From NCBI GenBank assembly GCA_934097085.1, contig CAKONK010000004.1:1907-65906 (forward strand): DNA of 64,000 nucleotides, written 5' to 3'. Under the pieces are notes generated by a model that was not told the DNA's origin, ran no database searches, and saw only the letters and a list, made by a program, of their open reading frames with translations. This document shows, one piece after another, positions 10,761-27,357 of this stretch. The stretch comes from an uncultured Bacilli bacterium (GTDB lineage Bacteria; Bacillota_I; Bacilli_A; RF39; UBA660). Each line of letters starts with the position of its first letter. Position 1 is the stretch's first letter. Made by a program: the position numbers and the translations under genes.

Positions 10761-11411
10761 ATGAATAAAAATGATTATGTCCTCCATAATATATGGAGAA
10801 TGAATAAAAAGGAAATCAATAATTTTAATATAAAAAAAATAACTAATTTTGGTATTGCACTATGTATGATGTTTACAATAATTTTTGCTCCAAGTGTGCA
10901 AAGAGTAAAAGAGGTTAATACTAAAGTATCTTCATTTGATAATTATAATGCTAATATTACTAAAGAAGATAAAGTAGAATACATTTTAAGTAAGTATAAT
11001 TTGACTAAAAATGAATTTAATACTTTAACTGCAATAGTTTTATCTGAGGCACAAAGTAATTCTTATGAAGATGCCTATGCAGTAATTAATACAATTTATA
11101 ATAGAACTCATGCTAAAAATTGGGTTAGAAGTTGTAGTAGTTACTTTGGTAAAAGTAATGGACAAAGTTTATACTATCAAGCAATTATGCCTAATCAGTT
11201 TGTTGTTTATCAACATGGTACTTTTACTAGATATTTAAATAGAACTGATTTAAATGGTTATAATGCTGTTATTGACTTTTTATACGATGAAAAAATAATG
11301 CATAATTATTTATCATTTAGGGCTAATAATATAGTAGTAACTGGTTCTGAAAAATTTAGTACAATGGGTAATAACTATTTTAATACTTTAGAGGAAGGTA
11401 ATAGAATTTAA
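10761..11411 (+). CDS. cell wall hydrolase, SleB-like (Hydrolase_2 family)
   Basis: LTAIVLSEAQSNSYEDAYAVINTIYNRT resembles the SleB catalytic-domain signature; SD gggggaaag before ATG. Confidence 0.5.
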   Translation: MNKNDYVLHNIWRMNKKEINNFNIKKITNFGIALCMMFTIIFAPSVQRVKEVNTKVSSFDNYNANITKEDKVEYILSKYNLTKNEFNTLTAIVLSEAQSNSYEDAYAVINTIYNRTHAKNWVRSCSSYFGKSNGQSLYYQAIMPNQFVVYQHGTFTRYLNRTDLNGYNAVIDFLYDEKIMHNYLSFRANNIVVTGSEKFSTMGNNYFNTLEEGNRI

Positions 11412-14269: not shown

Positions 14270-16126
14270 ATGAATAGAAGTAAAATAACAAAATCGTTAG
14301 CGGTGTTCGCCTCAGTAATATTGATAATCATTATAGGCGTGGCATCATTTGCATATTTTGGAACATTTAGTGTAAATTTAAATAATAATGTAGCAGTAAA
14401 TATAAATTCATCTAGTCCAGGAAATTCAACATTTATCGCAAATGCAACTCAGTTAAATTTAGTAGTCCCAGCGGCAGATATGAGTTTTACTCAGGCAAAT
14501 AATACAGTAGCTGCAAAAGAAGATACAGCATATTTAGATGTAACACTTACAGGTTCACCAAATTTACTTACAACATGTACATATGATATAGTTTATGAAT
14601 ATAATTCGGGAAGTAATGTATATGGACAGGGTACAACAACAAAAACAAGTGGAGCAGATAAAGAAATAACAATAGAAGTAAATGGAATGAATGGAAATAA
14701 TCATTTTGCAGAAGAAACAAATTTTGATTATGCTAATATTCAAAGTTATTATGATAGTACAAATAAATATTATAAGCTAGTTGAAAATGCCACAATAAAA
14801 AGTTTGGGAACAGAACAATCAGTAAGATGGAAAATAATAGGAAGGTATTATAATTTAGATGTAAGTCAAGCACAATTAAGTGGAAAAAACTTTACTGGTA
14901 AAATATATGCAATAAGTAAAGGATGTTCCTCAGAAGATGGTACAACTGTTAAAAAAGGTTATGAAACAATTGTGGCAAATAATGGTGGCTCAGCAAGTAT
15001 GACAACTCTTACATCAACAGATTTTGCAACGGTTACTACAGAAAATGACAAAGGAATGTATAAAGCAACAGATGACTTAGGAACATCATATTATTTTAGA
15101 GGAGCAGTAGATAATAATTGGGTAAAATATGGTAAAGAAACTGCATGTACTTTTAATGGGTCGAAAGTAGTATATGTAGATTCAAAATTTAATTTTAGAA
15201 ATGTAAAAGATGAAGAAGAATGTGTATCCACAACTTTATGCAGTGCTATGGGTGCATATGCAGTAGGATTAAGTGATGATATGTGTACTTCTGCAGGGGG
15301 AGTACCAATAGGTAAAAAAGGTACATATTCTACCCAGGATATGTATTGGCGAATAATAAGAATCAATGGCGATAATTCAATAAGAATGATATATACAGGA
15401 AACGATGCACCAAGTGCTTCAACAAGTGTAATAATGACGGGTTATAAAACTGTGAGTAGTATTAATAGATTTAATACAAATTATGATAGTGCAGAATATG
15501 TAGGATATATGTATACGATAGGAGAGCAACATGGAACAGGAAAAGATAGTACAATAAAAACAGCATTGGATGATTGGTATGCAAATCATACAGATTTAAA
15601 TAAAACTGGAACAAAAATAACAGATCAAATATATTGTAATGATAGAACAGCATCAACTTCAGATGCAGAATATTCAACAACAAATTACACAACACTAACA
15701 AGTTGGAATTCAACTGGAACTACTTATTATTATGGAGCATATGGAAGAATAGCTAAAGATAATAATCCAATGTTAACCTGTGCAGTGGATAGTGATAGAT
15801 TTACAGTTAATAAAACAAATGGTAAAGGAAATAGTGCATTAACATATCCTGTAGGTTTGATAACAATAGATGAGTTGGAAATGGCAGGAAACAATTGGAG
15901 TGAAAGCAACACGAGCTATTATTTACATACTGGAGCTAACTATTGGGCGGGCTCCCCTTATGGATTCGATAGTAATGGTGCTTATGAGTTCCGTGTGGCT
16001 TATGATGGCATTTTGAGCGACTATTTTGTCGATTACAATTTTGGCGTGCGTGGTGTAGTTTCTCTATCCTCTGATGCTAAGTTACTTGGCAGTGGTACAT
16101 ATGATGATGTGTATGTAGTAAGTTAA
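14270..16126 (+). CDS. DGR target (variable) protein: N-terminal TM anchor, large ectodomain, C-terminal C-type-lectin/DUF1566-like variable region
   Basis: 618 aa; C-terminal 40 aa (YWAGSP...GVRGV) contains the VR matching the downstream TR; higher GC than surroundings. Confidence 0.8.
   Translation: MNRSKITKSLAVFASVILIIIIGVASFAYFGTFSVNLNNNVAVNINSSSPGNSTFIANATQLNLVVPAADMSFTQANNTVAAKEDTAYLDVTLTGSPNLLTTCTYDIVYEYNSGSNVYGQGTTTKTSGADKEITIEVNGMNGNNHFAEETNFDYANIQSYYDSTNKYYKLVENATIKSLGTEQSVRWKIIGRYYNLDVSQAQLSGKNFTGKIYAISKGCSSEDGTTVKKGYETIVANNGGSASMTTLTSTDFATVTTENDKGMYKATDDLGTSYYFRGAVDNNWVKYGKETACTFNGSKVVYVDSKFNFRNVKDEEECVSTTLCSAMGAYAVGLSDDMCTSAGGVPIGKKGTYSTQDMYWRIIRINGDNSIRMIYTGNDAPSASTSVIMTGYKTVSSINRFNTNYDSAEYVGYMYTIGEQHGTGKDSTIKTALDDWYANHTDLNKTGTKITDQIYCNDRTASTSDAEYSTTNYTTLTSWNSTGTTYYYGAYGRIAKDNNPMLTCAVDSDRFTVNKTNGKGNSALTYPVGLITIDELEMAGNNWSESNTSYYLHTGANYWAGSPYGFDSNGAYEFRVAYDGILSDYFVDYNFGVRGVVSLSSDAKLLGSGTYDDVYVVS
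15943..16057 (+). repeat. DGR variable repeat (VR)
   Basis: 115-bp match to TR (17038..17152); 21 differences, all at TR adenines; 3' GC-rich ggcgtgcgtggtgta identical in both. Confidence 0.85.
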
Positions 16127-16164
16127 GCTAGAAAGAAGGACTACTTCTCTGAGAAAAGAAAACA

Positions 16165-16183
16165 GCACAATCCTCGATTGTGC
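16165..16183 (+). promoter_or_regulatory. GC-rich perfect hairpin downstream of VR (DGR homing-associated stem-loop candidate)
   Basis: gcacaatc-ctc-gattgtgc, 8-bp perfect stem, about 110 bp after VR 3' end. Confidence 0.5.
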
Positions 16184-16247
16184 GTCGGGCGAAAAATAAA
16201 ACTTAGTGTGGTTGTAGTGTTGAAAAAGTAAAACATACTAAAGTTGT

Positions 16248-16266
16248 ACGCCCCTTTATGGGGCGT
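16248..16266 (+). promoter_or_regulatory. second GC-rich hairpin between target gene and Avd
   Basis: acgcccc-tttat-ggggcgt, 7-bp perfect stem. Confidence 0.45.
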
Positions 16267-16295
16267 ATATTCCACGAAGTGGCAGAAAGGAAAGT

Positions 16296-16637
16296 ATGCA
16301 GTCATTTAAATTAATTAATAAAGCAAATGAATTATATGATTATTCATTTACTTATATTTTAAATAAAATGCCAGGTAAGGCTAAGACTTTTAGGATTGCT
16401 TTGGAAAGTGAATTATATGAGTTAATACATAATATCTATAGAGCAAATATAAATTATGAAAGTGAAAAAATAAGAAGTAAATATCAAAAAGAAGCCTTAG
16501 TGAATTTAAGTACACTTGATTTAATAATAGGTCTTGTGGGAAAGCATAAATACATTAAAATGAAAAGAGTACATGGGTTTTTAGGAATACTTAATGATAC
16601 TAAAAAAATGATGTATGGTTGGATTAAAGAAAAATGA
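16296..16637 (+). CDS. avd: DGR accessory variability determinant (Avd), four-helix-bundle family
   Basis: 113 aa basic protein; MPGKAKTFRIALESELYELIHNIYRAN fits the Avd/four-helix-bundle signature; sits between VR and TR. Confidence 0.65.
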   Translation: MQSFKLINKANELYDYSFTYILNKMPGKAKTFRIALESELYELIHNIYRANINYESEKIRSKYQKEALVNLSTLDLIIGLVGKHKYIKMKRVHGFLGILNDTKKMMYGWIKEK

Positions 16638-16933
16638 ATGATGCACTTTCTAAAATATACGATGATTTGAATGAACTTGTAATGAGAAAAATTCCTCATG
16701 ATAAAGAATTATTAAGTACAAGAATTATTAAAGAACATACTAAGATATGCGAATACACTTTTAATATAATAAATTCTAATAAGGATAAAAATTATATGTT
16801 AGAATTTAAAGTTAGTGTGAAATATATATTATTTGTTCTTGAATACTTTGTTAGTAAAAAAATTATTAATGAAGAAGTTTATAAAACTTTTGAAAAAGAA
16901 TACAAAAATTTATATTTTTTAGTAAACCCTTAA
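16634..16933 (+). CDS. second Avd-like four-helix-bundle protein (paralog?)
   Basis: 99 aa; ATGA-overlapped with avd; IPHDKELLSTRIIKEHTKICEYTFNIIN resembles the same family motif. Confidence 0.4.
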   Translation: MNDALSKIYDDLNELVMRKIPHDKELLSTRIIKEHTKICEYTFNIINSNKDKNYMLEFKVSVKYILFVLEYFVSKKIINEEVYKTFEKEYKNLYFLVNP

Positions 16934-17037
16934 TTTTCTAATTAAGGTAGACATATTATTTTTGGGATTTATGATAATGTGTCTACCATAGTTAAAAAGC
17001 TTTGGGAAGTAAATATTGCTGATAGGGATATGCTACT

Positions 17038-17152
17038 TTGGGCGGGCTCCCCTAATGAATTCAATAGTAATAATGCTAATGAGTTCAATGTGAATAATGA
17101 TGGCAATTTGAACAACAATAATGTCAATAACAATAATGGCGTGCGTGGTGTA
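17038..17152 (+). repeat. DGR template repeat (TR)
   Basis: Asn-codon (AAY)-rich; 16 AAY codons; counterpart of VR; the listed ORF 16979..17215 is an artefact of the TR. Confidence 0.85.
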
Positions 17153-17362
17153 TTTTCCTTACAAAATGAGTATTATTACACAAAGTATTTACTTTATGAA
17201 TGTAATTACTCTTAGACAAATTATGGATAGGAAACAAGCATATTCCTTGGCATTATGCCTAAAATGAAAGTGATGAAGAGAATAGTGTTTATTATATAAT
17301 CGCTTCCTAGTAATACTTTTAATAGCTGTCAGCAATATTTATAAAATTAATGAAAGGAAGGG

Positions 17363-18703
17363 ATGTTTGTAACTGAATTTAATATTGATGAGATATTTAG
17401 TTATGAGAGTGTTGTGTGGGCTTATCATAATGTATGTAAAAATTGTCGGTCATCAATAAAAAAAACTAAGTTTACTTATTTTGCAAATTCTAATATATTT
17501 GATATTTATAATAAATTAAGGGATTTAAGTTATAAATTTTCAAAATATACAATCTTTATAATAAAAGATCCAAAATATAGAGTAATTATGAGCGATACAA
17601 TATATGATAAAATAGTTAACTATTTAGTGGCATATAAAGTGTTACTTCCTGTTTTATCACCAACATTAATTGAACAAAATGTTGCAACTAGGAAAGGAAA
17701 GGGTGCTAGTAAAGCTTACTATTTTTTTGAAAAATATGCAAATAAGTTAAAAGAAAATGGAAGTGTTTATGTTTTAAAAATAGATATAAAAAAATATTTT
17801 TATAATATAAATCATTCAGTGTTATTAAAAATGCTGAAAAAATATATAAGTAGTAGTATGTTAAGTAATTTTATTGTAAATATAATTAATCAGACAAATA
17901 ATGATTATGTAAATAATAATATTAATTATTTAAAAAACAAAATAATACAAGATTTAAATTATAAAAGTATTTCTTTAAAAGAAAAAGAAGAATTAATAAA
18001 AAAAATATATGAAATACCATTATATGATAATGGAAAAGGGCTTTCAATTGGAAATGTTTGTTCTCAAATATTAGCGGTATTCTATTTAAATGAATTCGAT
18101 CATTATATGAAAGAAAAAATTAAATGTAGATGTTATTTAAGATACATGGATGATATAGTAATTTTAAGTAATAGTAAATCATTTTTAAAAGATGTATTTT
18201 ATTTAGCAAATGATAAATTAAAGGAATATAAACTAACTATTAATCCAAAAAGTAACATATATAAATTAAATAATTCTTTTACCTTTTTAGGAAGAACTTA
18301 CTATTTAAAAAATAATATACTTTTATATAGATGCAGAAGCACTACATATAAAAGTATAATGAAAAAATTAAATTATTTAAGAAATAATGATTTCAAAAGT
18401 TATTATTTGAGTAAAATAAGTTACAAAGGTTATTTAAATAAAAATATATATTCTTTAAAAGAAGAGTTCGATTTTTTAAGTAATAAATATAATAATGTAA
18501 TAGTTAAAGATTTTATATATGAAGTTGGGTATGTTATTAGAAGTAATGTTAGTGATGATGTTATTAATGAGGTTTTAGATAATATTGGGATAAGTGTTAT
18601 AAATATTTTTAATATTAAAAGATTTATTAAATATTTTGAATCAAATAATATAAAATATATATATTTAGAAAAAACAAAAATTGTTTTTAAGTATGATTGC
18701 TAG
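17363..18703 (+). CDS. DGR reverse transcriptase
   Basis: 446 aa; motif 4 IGNVCSQ (DGR-specific I/LGxxxSQ) and motif 5 YMDD. Confidence 0.85.
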   Translation: MFVTEFNIDEIFSYESVVWAYHNVCKNCRSSIKKTKFTYFANSNIFDIYNKLRDLSYKFSKYTIFIIKDPKYRVIMSDTIYDKIVNYLVAYKVLLPVLSPTLIEQNVATRKGKGASKAYYFFEKYANKLKENGSVYVLKIDIKKYFYNINHSVLLKMLKKYISSSMLSNFIVNIINQTNNDYVNNNINYLKNKIIQDLNYKSISLKEKEELIKKIYEIPLYDNGKGLSIGNVCSQILAVFYLNEFDHYMKEKIKCRCYLRYMDDIVILSNSKSFLKDVFYLANDKLKEYKLTINPKSNIYKLNNSFTFLGRTYYLKNNILLYRCRSTTYKSIMKKLNYLRNNDFKSYYLSKISYKGYLNKNIYSLKEEFDFLSNKYNNVIVKDFIYEVGYVIRSNVSDDVINEVLDNIGISVINIFNIKRFIKYFESNNIKYIYLEKTKIVFKYDC

Positions 18704-18833
18704 GATAAAGCCTAGCTTTTATTATGTAAATGATTTTACATATTTATATGTGTTAATTAATGTCAAATAAATTATAAAAAAAGTGTCAAAAATGTGTAAA
18801 ATTTTAATTTTTTTTAAGAAATTTATTAAAAAA

Positions 18834-18918
18834 AGGAGGAAATCAGAAATTTACCGGTAATAAATATAATGAAGGGAGGAAATCAGAAATTTACCGGTAA
18901 TAAATATAATGAAGGGAG
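18834..18918. repeat. tandem direct repeat, 2 x 40 bp plus partial third
   Basis: ggaggaaatcagaaatttaccggtaataaatataatgaag repeated exactly with period 40 (18841 vs 18881). Confidence 0.7.
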
Positions 18919-18985
18919 AAAAATACAAAGTTATAAAAAAAATGTGAAAATGTAAACTATTGTAAATTAGAAAGCGAGGTAAAAA

Positions 18986-19330
18986 ATGAACGAATTAGAA
19001 AAAATTAATGAAACTATTTTTGAAAGTATTAAACATGTAGATGATGAAGGTAATGAATATTGGTATGTAAGGGAATTACAATATATTCTAGGGTATAATC
19101 AGTGGCGAAGTATAAATGATTTAATTAAAAGAGCAAAAGTTGCTTGTAAATAAAGCGATAATAATATTCATGACCATTTTGCGGTACAACGCAAAATGGT
19201 TGATATAGGTTCAAAGACACAAAGAGAAGTTCTTGATTATAAACTATCCAGATATGCTTGTTATTTAATTGCTTAAAATGGTGATAGTAGGAAAAAAGTT
19301 TAAAAGAACTAAAAAAAGAAAATAACAATT
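18986..19330 (+). pseudogene. dinD/Bro-N family gene fragment (stop and frameshift), fused to the conserved 3' junction
   Basis: MNELEKINETIFESIKHVDDEGNEYWYVRELQYILGYNQWRS...VACK then stop; continues out of frame ...KLSRYACYLIA. Confidence 0.6.
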
Positions 19331-19363
19331 TAATTATAAAAAATAGAAATGGAGGTAACTAAA

Positions 19364-20197
19364 ATGAATGAATTAGAAAATATTAATGAAACACTATTTG
19401 AAAGTATTAGACATGTAGATGATGAAGGTAATGAATATTGGTATGCAAGGGAACTACAAAAGGTATTACAATACAACAAATGGGAAAACTTTAAAAAAGT
19501 AATTTTAAAGGCAAAATTGTCCTGTAATGCAAGTAGTTGTGAAATTTCAGAACAGTTTCTTGATATCAGGAAACCGATAATAGGTGGTAATGGAAATGTT
19601 CAATATGTATGTGATTATAAACTATCTAGATATGCTTGTTATCTTATTGCTCAAAATGGTGATAGTAGAAAGAAAGTTATAGCTCTTGCTCAAACATATT
19701 TTGCTATTCAAACTAGGAAACAAGAATTATTAGAGAAAGAATATAATAGTTTAACTGAAGATGAAAAAAGATTCTATCAAAGAGATCTAACTAAAAAAGG
19801 AAATTATTCCTTAAATCAAACTGCTAAAAAGGCTGGAGTAAAGAACTTTGATAAATTTCATAATGCTGGGTATAAAGGTTTATATAATGGAGAAACAGCA
19901 AACGATATTGCTAAAAGAAAGGGATTACGGTATAGGGAGGATGTTTTAGATAATATGGGAAGTGATGAACTGATAGCTAATTTATTTAGAATATCTCAAA
20001 CTAATCAAAGACTTAATAATGATAATATTCAAGGTGAAAAAGCAGCTTGCTTAACACATAATAAAATTGGAAAAATTGTTAGAAAAGCTATAAAAGAGGC
20101 TGGTGGTACAATGCCTGAGGATTTACCAACACCAGATAAAAGTTTAAAAGAACTAAAAAAAGAAAATAATAATCTAATAATTAAAAATAGAAAGTGA
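19364..20197 (+). CDS. DNA-damage-inducible protein D (DinD)-like, Bro-N domain protein, copy 1
   Basis: Matches DinD as I recall it (HLSRYACYL..QNGD, GQTYFAIQTR, HMGS.ELAANLFR.TQT, GGTMPE.LPTP); SD ggaggt before ATG 19364. Confidence 0.7.
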   Translation: MNELENINETLFESIRHVDDEGNEYWYARELQKVLQYNKWENFKKVILKAKLSCNASSCEISEQFLDIRKPIIGGNGNVQYVCDYKLSRYACYLIAQNGDSRKKVIALAQTYFAIQTRKQELLEKEYNSLTEDEKRFYQRDLTKKGNYSLNQTAKKAGVKNFDKFHNAGYKGLYNGETANDIAKRKGLRYREDVLDNMGSDELIANLFRISQTNQRLNNDNIQGEKAACLTHNKIGKIVRKAIKEAGGTMPEDLPTPDKSLKELKKENNNLIIKNRK

Positions 20198-20205
20198 GGT
20201 AAAAA

Positions 20206-20560
20206 ATGAACGAATTAGAAAAAATAAATGATACTATATTTGAAAGTATTATACATGTAGATGATGAAGGTAATGAATATTGGTATGCAAGAGAACTGCA
20301 ATATATTTTAGGGTATAATCAGTGGCGAAGTATAAATGATTTAATTAAAAGAGCTAAAGTTGCTTGTAAAGGAAGTGAAAATAATGTTGATTATCATTTT
20401 GCGGTCTACCGCAAAATGATAAATATTGCAAAGGGTGCAACTAGAAATGTGATATAAACTATCCAGATATGCTTGTTATTTAATTGCTTAAAATGGTGAT
20501 AGTAGGAAAAAAGTTTAAAAGAACTAAAAAAAGAAAATAACAATTTAATTATAAAAAATA
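20206..20560 (+). pseudogene. dinD/Bro-N family gene fragment, near-duplicate of 18986..19330
   Basis: 83-aa N-terminal ORF then frame break; same junction sequence. Confidence 0.6.
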
Positions 20561-20578
20561 GAAATGGAGGTAACTAAA

Positions 20579-21418
20579 ATGAATGAATTAGAAAATATTA
20601 ATGAAACACTATTTGAAAGTATTAGACATGTAGATGATGAAGGTAATGAATATTGGTATGCAAGGGAACTACAAAAGGTATTACAATACAACAAATGGGA
20701 AAACTTTAAAAAAGTAATTTTAAAGGCAAAATTGTCCTGTAATGCAAGTAGTTGTGAAATTTCAGAACAGTTTCTTGATATCAGGAAACCGATAATAGGT
20801 GGTAATGGAAATGTTCAATATGTATGTGATTATAAACTATCTAGATATGCTTGTTATCTTATTGCTCAAAATGGTGATAGTAGAAAGAAAGTTATAGCTC
20901 TTGCTCAAACATATTTTGCTATTCAAACTAGGAAACAAGAATTATTAGAGAAAGAATATAATAGTTTAACTGAAGATGAAAAAAGAATATATCAAAGAAA
21001 TCAAGCAAGAAAAGGAAATTATAATTTAAATAAGACAGCTGTTAATAGTGGAGTAAAAGATTTAGCAAGATTTCATAATGCTGGTTATAAAGGCTTATAT
21101 AATGGTGAAACCGCTGATGATATTTTTAAAAGAAAAAAATTAAGATATAGGGAAGATATTTTAGATAATATGGGAAGTGAAGAACTTGCAGCGAATTTAT
21201 TTAGAATAACTCAAACTGAATCTAAATTAAAAAAAGATAATGTAAGTGGTGAAGGTAATGCAATTGATACTCATTATGAGGTTGGTAAAGAAGTTCGTAA
21301 TACAATAGAAAGATTAGGCGGTACTATGCCTGAGGATTTACCAACACCAGATAAAAGTTTAAAAGAAATTGAAAAAGAAAACAATTTAATTATAAAAAAT
21401 AGAAATGGAGGTAACTAA
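20579..21418 (+). CDS. DinD-like Bro-N domain protein, copy 2
   Basis: First ~140 codons DNA-identical to copy 1 across the inspected stretches, C-terminal half diverged. Confidence 0.7.
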   Translation: MNELENINETLFESIRHVDDEGNEYWYARELQKVLQYNKWENFKKVILKAKLSCNASSCEISEQFLDIRKPIIGGNGNVQYVCDYKLSRYACYLIAQNGDSRKKVIALAQTYFAIQTRKQELLEKEYNSLTEDEKRIYQRNQARKGNYNLNKTAVNSGVKDLARFHNAGYKGLYNGETADDIFKRKKLRYREDILDNMGSEELAANLFRITQTESKLKKDNVSGEGNAIDTHYEVGKEVRNTIERLGGTMPEDLPTPDKSLKEIEKENNLIIKNRNGGN

Positions 21419-21419
21419 A

Positions 21420-22247
21420 ATGAATGAATTAGAAAATATTAATGAAACTATATTTGAAAGTATTATACATGTAGATGATGAAGGTAATGAATATTGGTAT
21501 GCAAGGGAACTTCAACAAATACTCGGTTATAAAGAATGGAGGTATTTTTCTGCAGTCATAGAAAAAGCACAAATTGCTTGTTCTCAAAGCAATAACAATG
21601 TTAATTCCCATTTTGGTGTAAACACCAAAATCGTATCTGCTGGTAAAGCTACAAAACCAATAATTGACTATAGATTAAGTAGATATGCCTGCTACTTAAT
21701 TGTCCAAAATGCAAACCCTAAATATGAAGCCGTATCTTTAGGACAGACATATTTTGCTGTACAAACGAGAAAAATGGAATTAACTGAAGAAGAATATGGC
21801 AGATTAACAGAAGATGAAAAAAGACTATATAGGAGAAGGCAAACAAGAGACGGCAATAAAATTTTATATAAAATTGCTAAAGAAAAAGGAGTTAAAAACT
21901 TTGATAAGTTTACTAATGCTGGGTATAAAGGATTATATAATGGAGAAACAGCACACGATATTGCAAAACGAAAAGGTTTAAGATATCGAGAAGATATACT
22001 AGATAATATGGGTAGTGTTGAATTTGGTGCTAATATATTTAGAATAACTCAAACAGAAGCATTACTTGAAAAACAAGAAGAGCCAAATGAAATAATTGCC
22101 ACAAATACTCACTACAAAGTGGGAAAAACAGTTAGAAAAGCAATTGAAGATTTAGGCGGTACAATGCCAGAAGATTTACCAACACCAGATAAAAGTTTAA
22201 AAGAATTAGAGAAAGAAAATAAAAATTTAATAATTAAAAATTATTAA
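21420..22247 (+). CDS. DinD-like Bro-N domain protein, copy 3 (diverged throughout)
   Basis: Same family motifs; start overlaps end of copy 2 via the conserved junction. Confidence 0.7.
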   Translation: MNELENINETIFESIIHVDDEGNEYWYARELQQILGYKEWRYFSAVIEKAQIACSQSNNNVNSHFGVNTKIVSAGKATKPIIDYRLSRYACYLIVQNANPKYEAVSLGQTYFAVQTRKMELTEEEYGRLTEDEKRLYRRRQTRDGNKILYKIAKEKGVKNFDKFTNAGYKGLYNGETAHDIAKRKGLRYREDILDNMGSVEFGANIFRITQTEALLEKQEEPNEIIATNTHYKVGKTVRKAIEDLGGTMPEDLPTPDKSLKELEKENKNLIIKNY

Positions 22248-22506
22248 TGAAATGGTATTTAAAGGGATTAAACATATTGATGAGAATGGAAATGAATATT
22301 GATATGCAAGAGAATTGCAAAATGTGAAAAGGTGGAATAAATTTTGTAATGCACTAGAAAGTGCACAAATTGCCTGTGGTGTTAGCAATAATAATGTGTC
22401 AGACCATTTTTCCCACTTGGGAAAAATGGTCAATATTGGCTCTAATACTTTTAAAAATATAGTTGATTACAAACTGTCGAGATATGCATATCACATAATG
22501 TTTTAA
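22248..22506 (+). pseudogene. dinD/Bro-N family terminal fragment
   Basis: ENGNEY then stop then YARELQ...DYKLSRYAYHIMF; truncated, ends the array. Confidence 0.5.
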
Positions 22507-22613
22507 ACTTAAATGAGAAAAAATAAATAAAGTCACATTAATGTCACTTTACAATGTTATATTATATTTGTATAAATTTATTTTATATAATATAATTTAT
22601 GTAGGAGGAAAAT

Positions 22614-24827
22614 ATGAGTAAAGATAAACCAATACTTAGTTTAAAAAAAGTTAGTAAATTCTATTATAATAAAGGTCTTGTTGCATCAGGTTTTAGTAAA
22701 ATATCTTTAGATTTTTATTTAGGAGAATTTGTTGTAATAACTGGAGAAAGTGGATGTGGAAAAAGTACTCTTTTAAATGTATTATCAGGTCTTGATACAT
22801 ATGAAGAAGGAGAAATGTATATTAATGGCATGGAAACAAGTCATTATAGTAATGAGGAAGCAGAGCATTATCGTAAAAGTTATATAGGTAATATATTTCA
22901 ATCATTTAATTTAGTAAGTAGTTATACTGTGTATCAAAACATTGAGTTAGTGCTTTTATTAAATGGTTTTAAGAAAAAAGATATTAAAAATAAAGTTATT
23001 GAATTAATTAAGGAAGTGGATTTATACAAATATAGAAATAGTAAAGTTTCTCATTTATCTGGTGGTCAAAAACAAAGAGTGGCTATTGCTAGAGCACTTG
23101 CAAAAGATGTACCTATAATAATTGCTGATGAACCAACAGGTAATTTAGATCGTAGATCTGCAGCATCTATAATGAAACTACTTGCAAAAGTAGCAAAAGA
23201 TAAACTTGTAATTGTTGTAACTCATAATTATGAAGATGTTGAGGATCTTGCTACTCGTAAAATTGAAATGCATGATGGAAAAGTTCGTGAGGATATAACG
23301 ATAAAACCTTATGAAGAAAGTAAAATTGAGCTTCATGAATATAAAAATATTAGTTTTTTAAATAAAATTAGACTTGGAGTAAGAAATACATTTAATTTAC
23401 CTATGAAGTTTATTTTACTTTTAATGGTATTCTTATTAATTACTTTTGCTTTCTTAGGAATATATTCTTCATTTAGAAAAGCAGAGTATGAAGAAAATAA
23501 AAATGGTTATAATTATTATTTTAGTGATTTATCTGATGAAAGAATTGTAATTAAAAAAAGTGATAATAGTGTAATAACAAATGAAGAATTAGATAAAATA
23601 AGTAAACTTGATTATGTAAAATCAGTAGTAAAGGATGATATAATTTTAGATGCAACATATAGTTTAACTGATGATAATACTTTTTGGTTTTATGGTAATG
23701 TAAAAAGTATACGTGAACTAAAATCTAATATCGAGGGTCGAAAACCTATTAATGATAATGAAATAATATTAGAAACTAATAAAAATAATTATTATGTTTC
23801 AACTTTAAAAGATAAGTTAAAAGAAACAAAACTTAGTTTAAGAAATACAGATAATATATCAAGTTCAAATAAAGATTTAAAAGTAACTGGATTTGTTCTT
23901 AAAGATAAGGAATATGATAATGATATTTTTTATGTAAGTGATGAAGTATTAGAAAAAATAAAAATAAATAGTTATGAAAACTATAGTAAGGTTACAATTA
24001 CCTTAAATAATCAAAGAGTAGATTTACTTTATAGTGTTAGTGATAAAGTACCTAAAGGAAAAGCAATTGTTCCATATGAACTTAATGTAATGTGTAAATA
24101 TAGTTGGTGTAAAAATAATATATTAAATATTAATGTTAAAAATATTTATTATGAAAATAATGTAGATTTAGAAATTAGTGATATGTATTTGAAATATAAT
24201 TTTGAAAATTTAACAGGTGTAAAAGATTATGAAAATAATAACTCTGTAATATATATTTCAAAAGAGGATTATTTATCTTTATTTGATATGGGAACTTATC
24301 AATCATCAATTTATTTGAAAGATGTAAAGGATATTCCCGAGGCTAAATGTTATCTTGAAATGAATGGATTTAAACCATTATTTATTAAAGATGCCAAAAT
24401 AAATTATTCAAATGGTGTTTTGGAAGTTATTAAAATATTTAAATTAATAGTTATGACTATTATATTTATTGTACTTTTCTTTATAGCATATTTTGTTATT
24501 AGATTAATTGAAAAATCAAGAAATGTTTATTATGCAACATTAAGAATTCTCGGAGCAACTAAAAAAGTATTAAAGAATTTAATTAATATTGAATTATTTT
24601 TAATATATCATATTGCTTTTGCTATAATACTAGGGTTATGTATTTTAGTTAAGAATAATATTATTGTTAATAATAATTTATATGATATGGTTAAATATCT
24701 TGGTATAAAAGACTATATTTTTGTATATGTTATATGTTTTGTAATGAGCATTCTTATATCATTTAGATATTCAAGAAAACTATTTAATTCATCAGCAATG
24801 AAAACTTATAGGGAGGAGGCAGAGTAA
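22614..24827 (+). CDS. ABC transporter, fused ATP-binding and FtsX/MacB-type permease domains
   Basis: 737 aa; Walker A GESGCGKST, signature LSGGQKQRVAIARAL; TM, large extracytoplasmic domain, then 3 C-terminal TMs. Confidence 0.7.
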   Translation: MSKDKPILSLKKVSKFYYNKGLVASGFSKISLDFYLGEFVVITGESGCGKSTLLNVLSGLDTYEEGEMYINGMETSHYSNEEAEHYRKSYIGNIFQSFNLVSSYTVYQNIELVLLLNGFKKKDIKNKVIELIKEVDLYKYRNSKVSHLSGGQKQRVAIARALAKDVPIIIADEPTGNLDRRSAASIMKLLAKVAKDKLVIVVTHNYEDVEDLATRKIEMHDGKVREDITIKPYEESKIELHEYKNISFLNKIRLGVRNTFNLPMKFILLLMVFLLITFAFLGIYSSFRKAEYEENKNGYNYYFSDLSDERIVIKKSDNSVITNEELDKISKLDYVKSVVKDDIILDATYSLTDDNTFWFYGNVKSIRELKSNIEGRKPINDNEIILETNKNNYYVSTLKDKLKETKLSLRNTDNISSSNKDLKVTGFVLKDKEYDNDIFYVSDEVLEKIKINSYENYSKVTITLNNQRVDLLYSVSDKVPKGKAIVPYELNVMCKYSWCKNNILNINVKNIYYENNVDLEISDMYLKYNFENLTGVKDYENNNSVIYISKEDYLSLFDMGTYQSSIYLKDVKDIPEAKCYLEMNGFKPLFIKDAKINYSNGVLEVIKIFKLIVMTIIFIVLFFIAYFVIRLIEKSRNVYYATLRILGATKKVLKNLINIELFLIYHIAFAIILGLCILVKNNIIVNNNLYDMVKYLGIKDYIFVYVICFVMSILISFRYSRKLFNSSAMKTYREEAE

Positions 24828-27223: not shown

Positions 27224-27357
27224 CTATATCTTTTTTTGTGGACTAAAAACTTTATATAATAATTTATTTACAAAAAAGGTAAAAATCATATCATAAAATG
27301 TAAAGTAGTGACAAATAAGTTTGTTAATATTTAACTAGTGTTATATAATTATACTAG

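Follow-up and report, generated by a model that had tools for sequence, protein, structure and literature searches.

The 64-kb stretch of DNA analyzed here (referred to below as the window) comes from an uncultured low-GC human-gut bacterium and carries, at positions 18986 to 22506, a recombining cluster of several paralogous genes of the DinD/PDC-S13 family. The reading that we favor, with a probability of roughly 65%, is that this array is a tandem cluster of long standing, made up of DinD-family genes that diverged in the distant past, within a hypervariable island composed of the array and an adjacent diversity-generating retroelement (DGR). Every unit of the array, dead or intact, also contains a palindrome at one codon position, and this conserved intragenic hairpin exists as a family-wide cis element. 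An earlier note on the same DNA had drawn attention to the tandem array, and its claims are taken up below where the results bear on them. Comparison loci are labeled L001, L002, and so on, and all features of the array, its spacer, and the DGR lie on the forward (+) strand.

Anatomy and strain variation of the DinD array

Six head-to-tail DinD-like units occupy the interval between the reverse transcriptase (RT) gene of the DGR (17363-18703) and an ATP-binding cassette (ABC) transporter gene (22614-24827): three intact genes, two fragments with internal deletions, and a tail fragment that has lost its 5' end. The earlier note had reported three intact, head-to-tail DinD/Bro-N genes of about 280 amino acids (aa), and this holds. 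All three products match NCBIfam NF008573 ("DNA damage-inducible protein D") full length over profile positions 3 to 275 of 288 (325, 347, and 314 bits for copies 1, 2, and 3, respectively; equivalog cutoff, 242 bits) and Pfam Bro-N (PF02498) at residues 20 to 116 (38 to 40 bits; cutoff, 25.6 bits). Each also matches the PADLOC model PDC-S13 (PDLC04919) full length, with E values from 1e-94 to 3e-100 (1e-96 for copy 1). The intact open reading frames (ORFs) extend over 19349-20197, 20564-21418, and 21405-22247. The true starts are probably the second ATGs at 19364, 20579, and 21420 (MNELEN...), because the products called in related strains are 275 to 277 aa long and begin with MNELE; from these starts, copy 1 would span 19364-20197 (277 aa, stop codon TGA), copy 2 would span 20579-21418 (279 aa), and copy 3 would span 21420-22247 (275 aa). 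An exact-protein look-up of copy 3 found no record.

GGAGGT lies 7 to 8 nucleotides (nt) upstream of each second ATG, inside the last codons of the preceding unit, and these codons generally carry the Shine-Dalgarno (SD) sequence of the following intact gene in the form of either GGAGGT or GTGAGGT. The repeated SD-bearing junctions that had been described are thus present, but the overlap claimed between copies 2 and 3 is not: with the second-ATG starts, the copy 2 stop codon (TAA, 21416-21418) would end 1 nt before the copy 3 start. The three intact genes are probably cotranscribed and translationally coupled as a unit apart from the DGR, and the array promoter presumably lies within the spacer between the RT gene and the array (18704-18985), the last ~115 nt of which are 92 to 96% conserved among strains.

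Self-comparison of the array, a check proposed in the earlier note, confirmed the tandem repeats. The repeated element is not the single gene, as had been supposed, but a 1215-bp unit of one dead fragment plus one intact gene, duplicated at 18964-20183 and 20184-21400 with ~89% identity overall (Tandem Repeats Finder reports no 1215-bp unit, its longest period being 500). Because the repeats span hundreds of bases at 77 to 100% identity, a chance origin is excluded. Within the duplicated unit, a tract of 534 bp at 19238-19771 is exactly identical to 20453-20986. Of its length, 126 bp precede the likely start and the other 408 bp open copies 1 and 2, beyond which the two genes drop to ~70 to 85% identity per 50-nt bin; the previous description of ~430 identical bp followed by divergence is correct if counted from the upstream ATG. 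The N-terminal half of copy 2 is therefore identical to that of copy 1, and its C-terminal half represents a different block type. Copy 3 differs from the others, as had also been seen, with a protein only 64% identical to that of copy 1, and its type is the final intact gene of the array in all strains.

The three fragments with stops or frameshifts recorded by the earlier note also proved real (at 18986, 20206, and ~22225/22248). Fragment A (18986-19363) and fragment B (20206-20578) are dead DinD copies of the same origin. In both, CAA has changed to TAA at codon 97 (reading ACYLIA and then stop), and ~470 bp are missing internally, which brings the remainder back to the conserved 3' junction; in fragment A this junction still provides the SD sequence for the next gene, and in fragment B it is likewise kept. 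Both lesions are also present in the internal fragments of four other assemblies; therefore, the internal fragment arose once and was copied along with its neighbor gene. Extra damage in the window consists of a TAA at codon 56 in fragment A and a 5-nt deletion in fragment B, and the allele type of fragment A has an intact counterpart at L001:10845-11672. Elsewhere (L011:327-617, L012:413-703, L015:3600-3890, and L017:9623-9913 and 10843-11133), the internal fragment still has an uninterrupted 96-aa reading frame, which encodes a truncated Bro-N domain with the same ACYLIA ending and possibly gives a small protein with a function in those strains.

Fused to the end of copy 3 is the tail fragment (22248-22506), of which only ~90 N-terminal codons remain. 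It has no start codon, lacks approximately the first 10 codons, carries TGA at a conserved Trp codon, and is found in every strain. At 22245-22260, the copy 3 stop codon (TAA, in ...AAAAATTATTAATGAAATGG) arises from fusion to the tail's ATTAATGAA (I-N-E), which is read in the other frame, and this fusion is common to all strains. Genetic code 4, considered because of the TGA at the Trp codon, was rejected: the DNA of the window (25.8% G+C) follows the standard code, its long ORFs are intact under table 11, TGA ends 2 of 52 of them, and the tail fragment has further lesions common to all strains.

Six syntenic loci of the same species were compared with the window, one from a scan of a genome collection (L001, a human-gut metagenome-assembled genome [MAG] of uncultured Mycoplasma sp. 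isolate MGYG-HGUT-04242) and the rest from look-ups of close homologs (L011, L012, L015, L016, and L017). The flanking ABC gene is 96.5 to 98.3% identical to that of the window across these loci, which therefore represent strains of one species, and the array aligns at only 89 to 92% between strains, with structural differences. Its order is fragment, gene, fragment, gene, gene, tail in the window and in L017; gene, fragment, gene, gene, tail in L015; three genes and tail in L016; fragment, four genes, and tail in L011, where the contig begins inside the array; and a C-terminally truncated gene, two genes, and tail in L001. The loci have 3 to 4 intact genes and from 0 to 2 internal fragments each, and at least five N-terminal and several C-terminal block types are variously combined (39 units classified in 30-nt windows); all of the differences seen are between samples. 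Comparison of related strains had been set beforehand as the refuting test, and it found an array that is not fixed but differs among the six loci in copy number, order, and block combinations, in support of the earlier proposal that the layout was produced by unequal crossing-over or gene conversion. In L017, which has the same architecture as the window, the two genes of the duplicated unit carry different N-blocks (types A and D), whereas both are of type A in the window; the 534-bp tract is therefore assigned to a conversion or duplication event in the window lineage. On this sequence evidence, the tract is the trace left by a recent event, either gene conversion or duplication, within the 1215-bp unit.

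Nonsynonymous and synonymous divergence (dN and dS; Nei-Gojobori estimates) indicates that the intact genes are under purifying selection, with dN/dS of 0.11 to 0.36 between copy 3 orthologs and 0.24 to 0.35 between paralogs. Between copies 1/2 and copy 3, dS is only 0.07 in codons 1 to 30, compared with 1.2 in codons 31 to 88, 1.5 to 1.9 in codons 89 to 140, and 0.9 to 1.2 in codons 141 to 245. Such low divergence at the gene start relative to the rest of the gene means that the gene ends and junctions have been homogenized, which is a signature of concerted evolution. Block types of the array are shared with L002, which has two tandem copies, and with L013 and L014, which have one copy in another context (Zip, dockerin, and cadherin-like neighbors). 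The suggestion of an expanding family does not fit these data, as the paralog types are old outside the gene ends, are maintained by purifying selection, and are shared with other organisms; by these measures, the cluster is not a recent expansion.

The anatomy and the strain comparison together suggest that the array evolves by ordinary homologous recombination between paralogs. Near-identity among all units over the ~90 nt at their start and the ~60 nt at their end would supply the crossover substrate. Unequal crossing-over would alter copy number, as in the duplicated fragment-plus-gene unit, and gene conversion would yield mosaics, the 534-bp identical tract included. If the proteins act in conflict with phages, as considered below, the divergent paralogs would give several specificities via variable blocks at residues ~31 to 88 and ~141 to 245.

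A conserved hairpin inside the DinD/Bro-N coding sequence

The palindromes of the six array units have stems of 8 to 15 bp and fall at codons ~64 to 72, at the motif H-F-x5-K-M (D-H-F-x5-K-M-V) between the KAxxxC and LSRYACYL segments of the Bro-N domain; the earlier note does not mention them. They are located at 19173-19200 in fragment A (11-bp stem, -18 kcal/mol, z = -5.6), 19555-19574 in copy 1 (8-bp stem with one G-U pair, -8.1 kcal/mol, z = -1.6), 20391-20422 in fragment B (14- to 15-bp stem, -18.6 kcal/mol, z = -7.0), 20770-20789 in copy 2 (identical to the copy 1 hairpin), 21610-21631 in copy 3 (9-bp stem, -9.1 kcal/mol, z = -3.9), and 22402-22431 in the tail fragment (13- to 14-bp stem, -21.1 kcal/mol, z = -5.3). 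Relative to shuffled sequences, folding is thus strong (z of -3.9 to -7.0) except for the hairpin of copies 1 and 2, which is weak alone. The whole window contains six perfect hairpins with a stem of at least 11 bp, and three of them are in DinD fragments. The inner hairpin sequence varies among the units, and its complementarity is kept.

The same codon position bears a hairpin in dinD of Escherichia coli K-12 (GACCATTTCGAGGAGATCCTCGATATGGTC; NC_000913.3 positions 3817934-3817963, L018:5935-5964) and in DinD genes of Gallionella, Pseudoxanthomonas, Dyadobacter, a Zoogloeaceae MAG, Veillonella, a Chloroflexia MAG, and a Tenericutes MAG. It also occurs in prophages and satellites. Among phages, an Akkermansia phage DinD and the three actinophage antirepressors examined (L180 to L182) have it at the homologous position; in Planktothrix phage PaV-LD it is shifted, and a Riemerella phage homolog lacks it. 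Because the antirepressors have a KilAC C-terminal domain, the hairpin belongs to the N-terminal domain segment and not to DinD proper. Rfam 15 gave no relevant match at an E value of ≤1 for window positions 16000 to 23000 and none at ≤10 for E. coli dinD, and none of the papers listed by text searches of the literature seemed, as judged by titles and abstracts, to describe the hairpin.

Hairpin statistics came from a codon alignment without gaps, anchored on the protein and fitted to no structure. In this alignment, 13 consecutive pairs are Watson-Crick in 73 to 95 of 96 distinct 60-nt segments, compared with 5 to 46 segments for the next 16 "pairs" outward. A formal covariation test covered 83 distinct homolog sequences from many phyla. 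Paired cells made up 91.7% of the total versus 73.2% in shuffles (0 of 500 shuffles reached the observed value) and 32 to 48% when the partner was slid by 1 to 3 columns. Changes occurred on both sides in 11 of the 13 pairs, compensatory cells numbered 195 versus 47 expected, and the covariation score was 0.507 versus 0.155 for the control. Covariation reaches the conserved outer stem, where it alters the protein, with the codon pairs CAT/ATG (H..M), CAA/TTG (Q..L), TGT/ACA (C..T), TAT/ATA (Y..I), and GAT/ATC (D..I); amino acid pairs linked to compensatory changes also include A..R and P..G. We know of no protein-level reason for antisense-complementary codon pairs. In the structural model described below, the encoded residues are predicted to form one beta-strand (E65-73).

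Since complementarity runs through the variable center, intrastrand pairing (an RNA hairpin, a single-stranded DNA [ssDNA] hairpin, or a cruciform) is indicated rather than two protein half-sites, and a simple two-half-site operator in double-stranded DNA is unlikely. The mismatches (in the inner stem, 32 G-T/T-G versus 15 A-C/C-A; in the outer stem, ~47 A-C/C-A) do not tell which strand or molecule folds. Other candidate roles were rejected. An intrinsic terminator does not agree with a T-run 5' and an A-run 3' of the stem on both strands, the runs pairing together; a stimulator of -1 frameshifting would need a slippery heptamer upstream, which is absent, and the T-run here belongs to the stem; and a structure hiding an internal start is not supported, as the ATG common in the 3' arm is absent from the three intact copies (KP, KP, and KI) and from many homologs. 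We rank first an mRNA or DNA structure that is recognized by the encoded structure-binding protein or tunes its expression, and second a pure stability or translation-pausing element. A functionless by-product of self-templated (quasipalindrome) repair is ranked third and is unlikely because the hairpin is conserved across phyla. Possible roles include autogenous control by the encoded protein, an element for translation or mRNA stability, and a cruciform.

Protein fold and possible function

DinD is a classic SOS gene. The E. coli protein is said to have been found by Uranga in 2011 to inhibit and disassemble RecA filaments on duplex DNA, an activity known for the E. coli protein only. E. coli DinD (b3645; NF008573/PRK11525) is ~47 to 49% identical to the array proteins over its full length and has the same two-domain architecture, but it is encoded by a single chromosomal SOS-induced copy, in contrast to the three to four divergent copies with dead fragments beside a DGR in this species. 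PMC4849656, citing Uranga et al. 2011, lists it as a protein ensuring RecA filament removal.

No solved structure matches the array proteins by sequence. An AlphaFold2 model of copy 2, built from an alignment of 34 sequences (mean predicted local distance difference test score [pLDDT] of 83), shows a soluble two-domain fold, and each gene product is predicted to combine a Bro-N/winged-helix domain at the N terminus with a helical bundle at the C terminus. This predicted fold is matched by Deinococcus DdrC, a match that suggests, but does not prove, homology. DdrC of Deinococcus radiodurans (PDB 7qvb, 7udi, and 8u0g) resembles DinD in being a DNA-damage-induced DNA-binding protein, but its sequence is only 13 to 16% identical to DinD, and the TM-scores are low (0.25 to 0.47), which is explained by a different interdomain arrangement. 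DdrC has been characterized as a DNA-damage-induced, DNA-binding, and DNA-compacting dimer with a winged helix-turn-helix N-terminal domain and a four-helix-bundle C-terminal domain and has been described as Deinococcus-specific, without known structural homologs (PMC9303277).

On balance, we lean toward a joint reading in which the DinD/Bro-N segment contains an undescribed, ancient, and functional cis-acting RNA or ssDNA hairpin and DinD is a widespread relative of DdrC. Under this joint reading, the hairpin would not be a by-product of protein constraints; rather, the pairing would dictate the protein sequence. The hairpin matters more than the array in that it is present in E. coli K-12 and hence is directly testable in a model organism, and it points to regulation or nucleic acid recognition embedded in the coding region for a domain that is very widespread. 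The DdrC match, if true, ties a Deinococcus radiation resistance factor to a bacterial and phage superfamily. The hairpin and this fold relationship are probably the parts likeliest to interest specialists.

The array proteins would be DNA-binding factors acting on damaged or foreign DNA, because E. coli DinD removes RecA filaments and DdrC, the nearest fold, binds and compacts broken DNA. The genomic context of the family seems to favor a role in phage-host conflict or in the handling of damaged DNA, and a role in phage conflict is suggested by family members that occur at prophage or satellite ends and in type I restriction-modification (R-M) operons. In IMG/VR contigs (L099 to L178), ~55 of 80 DinD genes are no more than 3 kb from the end of the contig, and at least 11 have an integrase-like gene within 1.5 kb. 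An element-end, integrase-adjacent position is typical of accessory or defense cargo. In INPHARED, full-length homologs annotated as DinD are found in Streptococcus (Javan) satellite phages, mostly ~1.3 to 2.3 kb into the record, and ~200 Mycobacterium/Gordonia phage records match the N-terminal domain alone, with those sampled mostly annotated as antirepressors. The N-terminal 120 residues of such actinophage antirepressors (Bro-N plus KilAC) are 35 to 48% identical to the DinD N-terminal domain, and the three examined share the hairpin position; in contrast to the array genes, they have a KilAC C-terminal domain, are phage lysis-lysogeny genes, and are not arrayed.

The association with type I R-M systems takes several forms. 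In addition to its full-length PDLC04919 match, the DinD sequence matches the first 270 positions of the type I HsdS model PDLC03083, and the array proteins thus resemble PDC-S13 or DinD-like genes in type I R-M operons and HsdS fusions, with the difference that no R-M genes were found near this array. Hsd genes adjoin DinD in three proteobacterial loci (L003, L004, and L006; EcoKI Hsd probes), and a coding sequence with a dinD domain within a type I R-M operon has been noted (PMC9881135). Relatives of DinD are unvalidated candidate defense genes, for which the array offers a natural panel of variants, and a recombining multi-paralog cluster argues for diversification of specificity.

Several points weigh against this interpretation of the cluster. 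A defense role is argued from guilt by association, PDC-S13 being a candidate only, and the literature searched contained no paper mentioning PDC-S13 and no published test of phage protection. Hsd genes were next to DinD in 0 of the 160 closest gut and viral loci and were not found at the array, although the EcoKI probes used are limited for other type I families. The dN/dS ratio never exceeds 1, giving no direct sign of diversifying selection. The idea of multiple specificities has no parallel elsewhere: among the 179 loci examined, arrays of at least three copies are limited to this species, and two copies occur in four loci. Finally, the operon structure and the promoter are deduced from the sequence, and a promoter scan was at chance level in this AT-rich DNA (64 sites found versus 54.7 expected).

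The neighboring retroelement and alternative explanations

The DGR that the earlier note placed beside the array is genuine. It extends over 14270-18703, and its template repeat (TR; 17038-17157) matches a variable repeat (VR; 15943-16062) with 21 of 22 mismatches at TR adenines. The VR lies at the 3' end of a 618-aa target gene (14270-16126), and Avd (16296-16637) and the RT were detected by profile matches. This VR is the sole TR match in the window; the array contains no VR-like sequence and only chance-level TR matches (28 nt, E = 1.5). The RT of the window is 99.7% identical to that of L001 and ~80% identical to those of L015 to L017, though the flanks are ~97% identical, and such divergence of the RT and the array between conserved genes identifies the two together as a variable island. 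Two divergent DGR alleles occur at the same site, one with a 618-aa target and one with a 594-aa target.

The colocation of DGR and array is constant in this species, with the array directly 3' of the RT gene wherever that side is assembled (the window, L001, L015, L016, and L017), and E. coli DinD is reported to act on RecA-DNA filaments. It could thus be argued that the array is an accessory module of the DGR, for example, one handling cDNA or RecA in mutagenic retrohoming, and the joint variability of the two would agree with this. We consider such a module improbable, as a terminator-like hairpin (18699-18716) directly follows the RT gene at the start of the spacer, VR-like sequence is lacking in the array, DinD homologs elsewhere, including the closest single-copy homologs (L013 and L014) and the two-copy loci, have no DGR, and DinD is not, to our knowledge, among the known DGR accessory genes. 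A functional link between the array and the DGR is accordingly unlikely. Programmed cassette switching, in which one or a few expressed DinD genes would be rewritten frequently from silent fragments, as in pilE/pilS or vlsE, so that the protein varies within a population, is equally hard to credit. The array does share conserved ends, mosaic interiors, pseudogene members, and strain differences in copy number with silent-cassette systems, as well as with tandem multigene families shaped by gene conversion and unequal crossing-over; the expressed genes have silent fragments between them in which the junctions are conserved, the 534-bp conversion tract is fresh, and a structured DNA element, the hairpin, is present in every unit. 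Unlike pilS/pilE-type systems, however, nothing in it points to a dedicated switch, to expression from a single site, or to a product at the surface. Its internal fragments share the stop and the ~470-bp deletion in all strains, pointing to one old origin rather than a diverse silent reservoir; three to four intact genes coexist, all under purifying selection and apparently coexpressed; and the products are cytoplasmic-type soluble proteins in the model, with an N terminus (MNELENINETLFESIRHVDDEGNEYW) that has no hydrophobic leader or signal peptide when read from the sequence, no signal peptide predictor having been run. Moreover, the annotation of the syntenic loci shows no recombinase within ~8 kb, and the ends of identical tracts are not clustered at the hairpin in a crude analysis affected by shared gaps. 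The dedicated recombinational variation locus that the earlier note had raised as a possibility is thus not borne out, and neither is an integron-like array, as no integrase is annotated in the syntenic neighborhoods and the hairpin, with its short stem, lies inside the ORF, in contrast to attC at the 3' end of a cassette.

An assembly artifact, with repeats and the identical tract misassembled from one or two genes of mixed strains, might be expected from metagenome-type data, given that the 534-bp exact repeat exceeds a short read and that at least one assembly (L011) breaks inside the array. It is very improbable here: independent assemblies from different samples give multicopy arrays between the same flanks, L017 is collinear with the window over the whole 3.5 kb with exactly the same architecture at 90% identity, and the paralog types differ by a dS of ~1, far above strain variation. 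A different kind of alternative holds that these are housekeeping RecA/SOS modulators doing the job of E. coli DinD, their multiplicity and shuffling being neutral by-products of tandem duplication. The full-length matches of all three genes to the DinD equivalog model, the purifying selection on all of them, and the lack of any sign of positive selection are consistent with this view, but every strain retains distinct old paralog types next to one another that have not collapsed, the family is often found on prophages, satellites, and R-M loci rather than in core positions, and the locus itself is in a variable island. We therefore regard the housekeeping explanation as unlikely, though worth keeping in mind, and prefer that of a long-lived cluster of diverged, recombining DinD paralogs.

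Some minor features of the locus were also recorded. Upstream of the array, a 40-bp unit (GGAGGAAATCAGAAATTTACCGGTAATAAATATAATGAAG) is repeated 2.2 times at 18835-18922 and occurs as a single copy in other strains. Downstream, a 239-aa helix-turn-helix gene (HTH_19/HTH_3) lies between the second ABC gene and an F420-ligase-like gene in L015 and L016 (L016:16737-17456); it is missing from the window (27241-27256) and truncated to 84 aa in L017. Just upstream of the TR, an imperfect palindrome at 16927-17008 (self-complementary over 16935-16998) gives weak matches on both strands to an unrelated microRNA model and possibly serves as a structural part of the DGR RNA.

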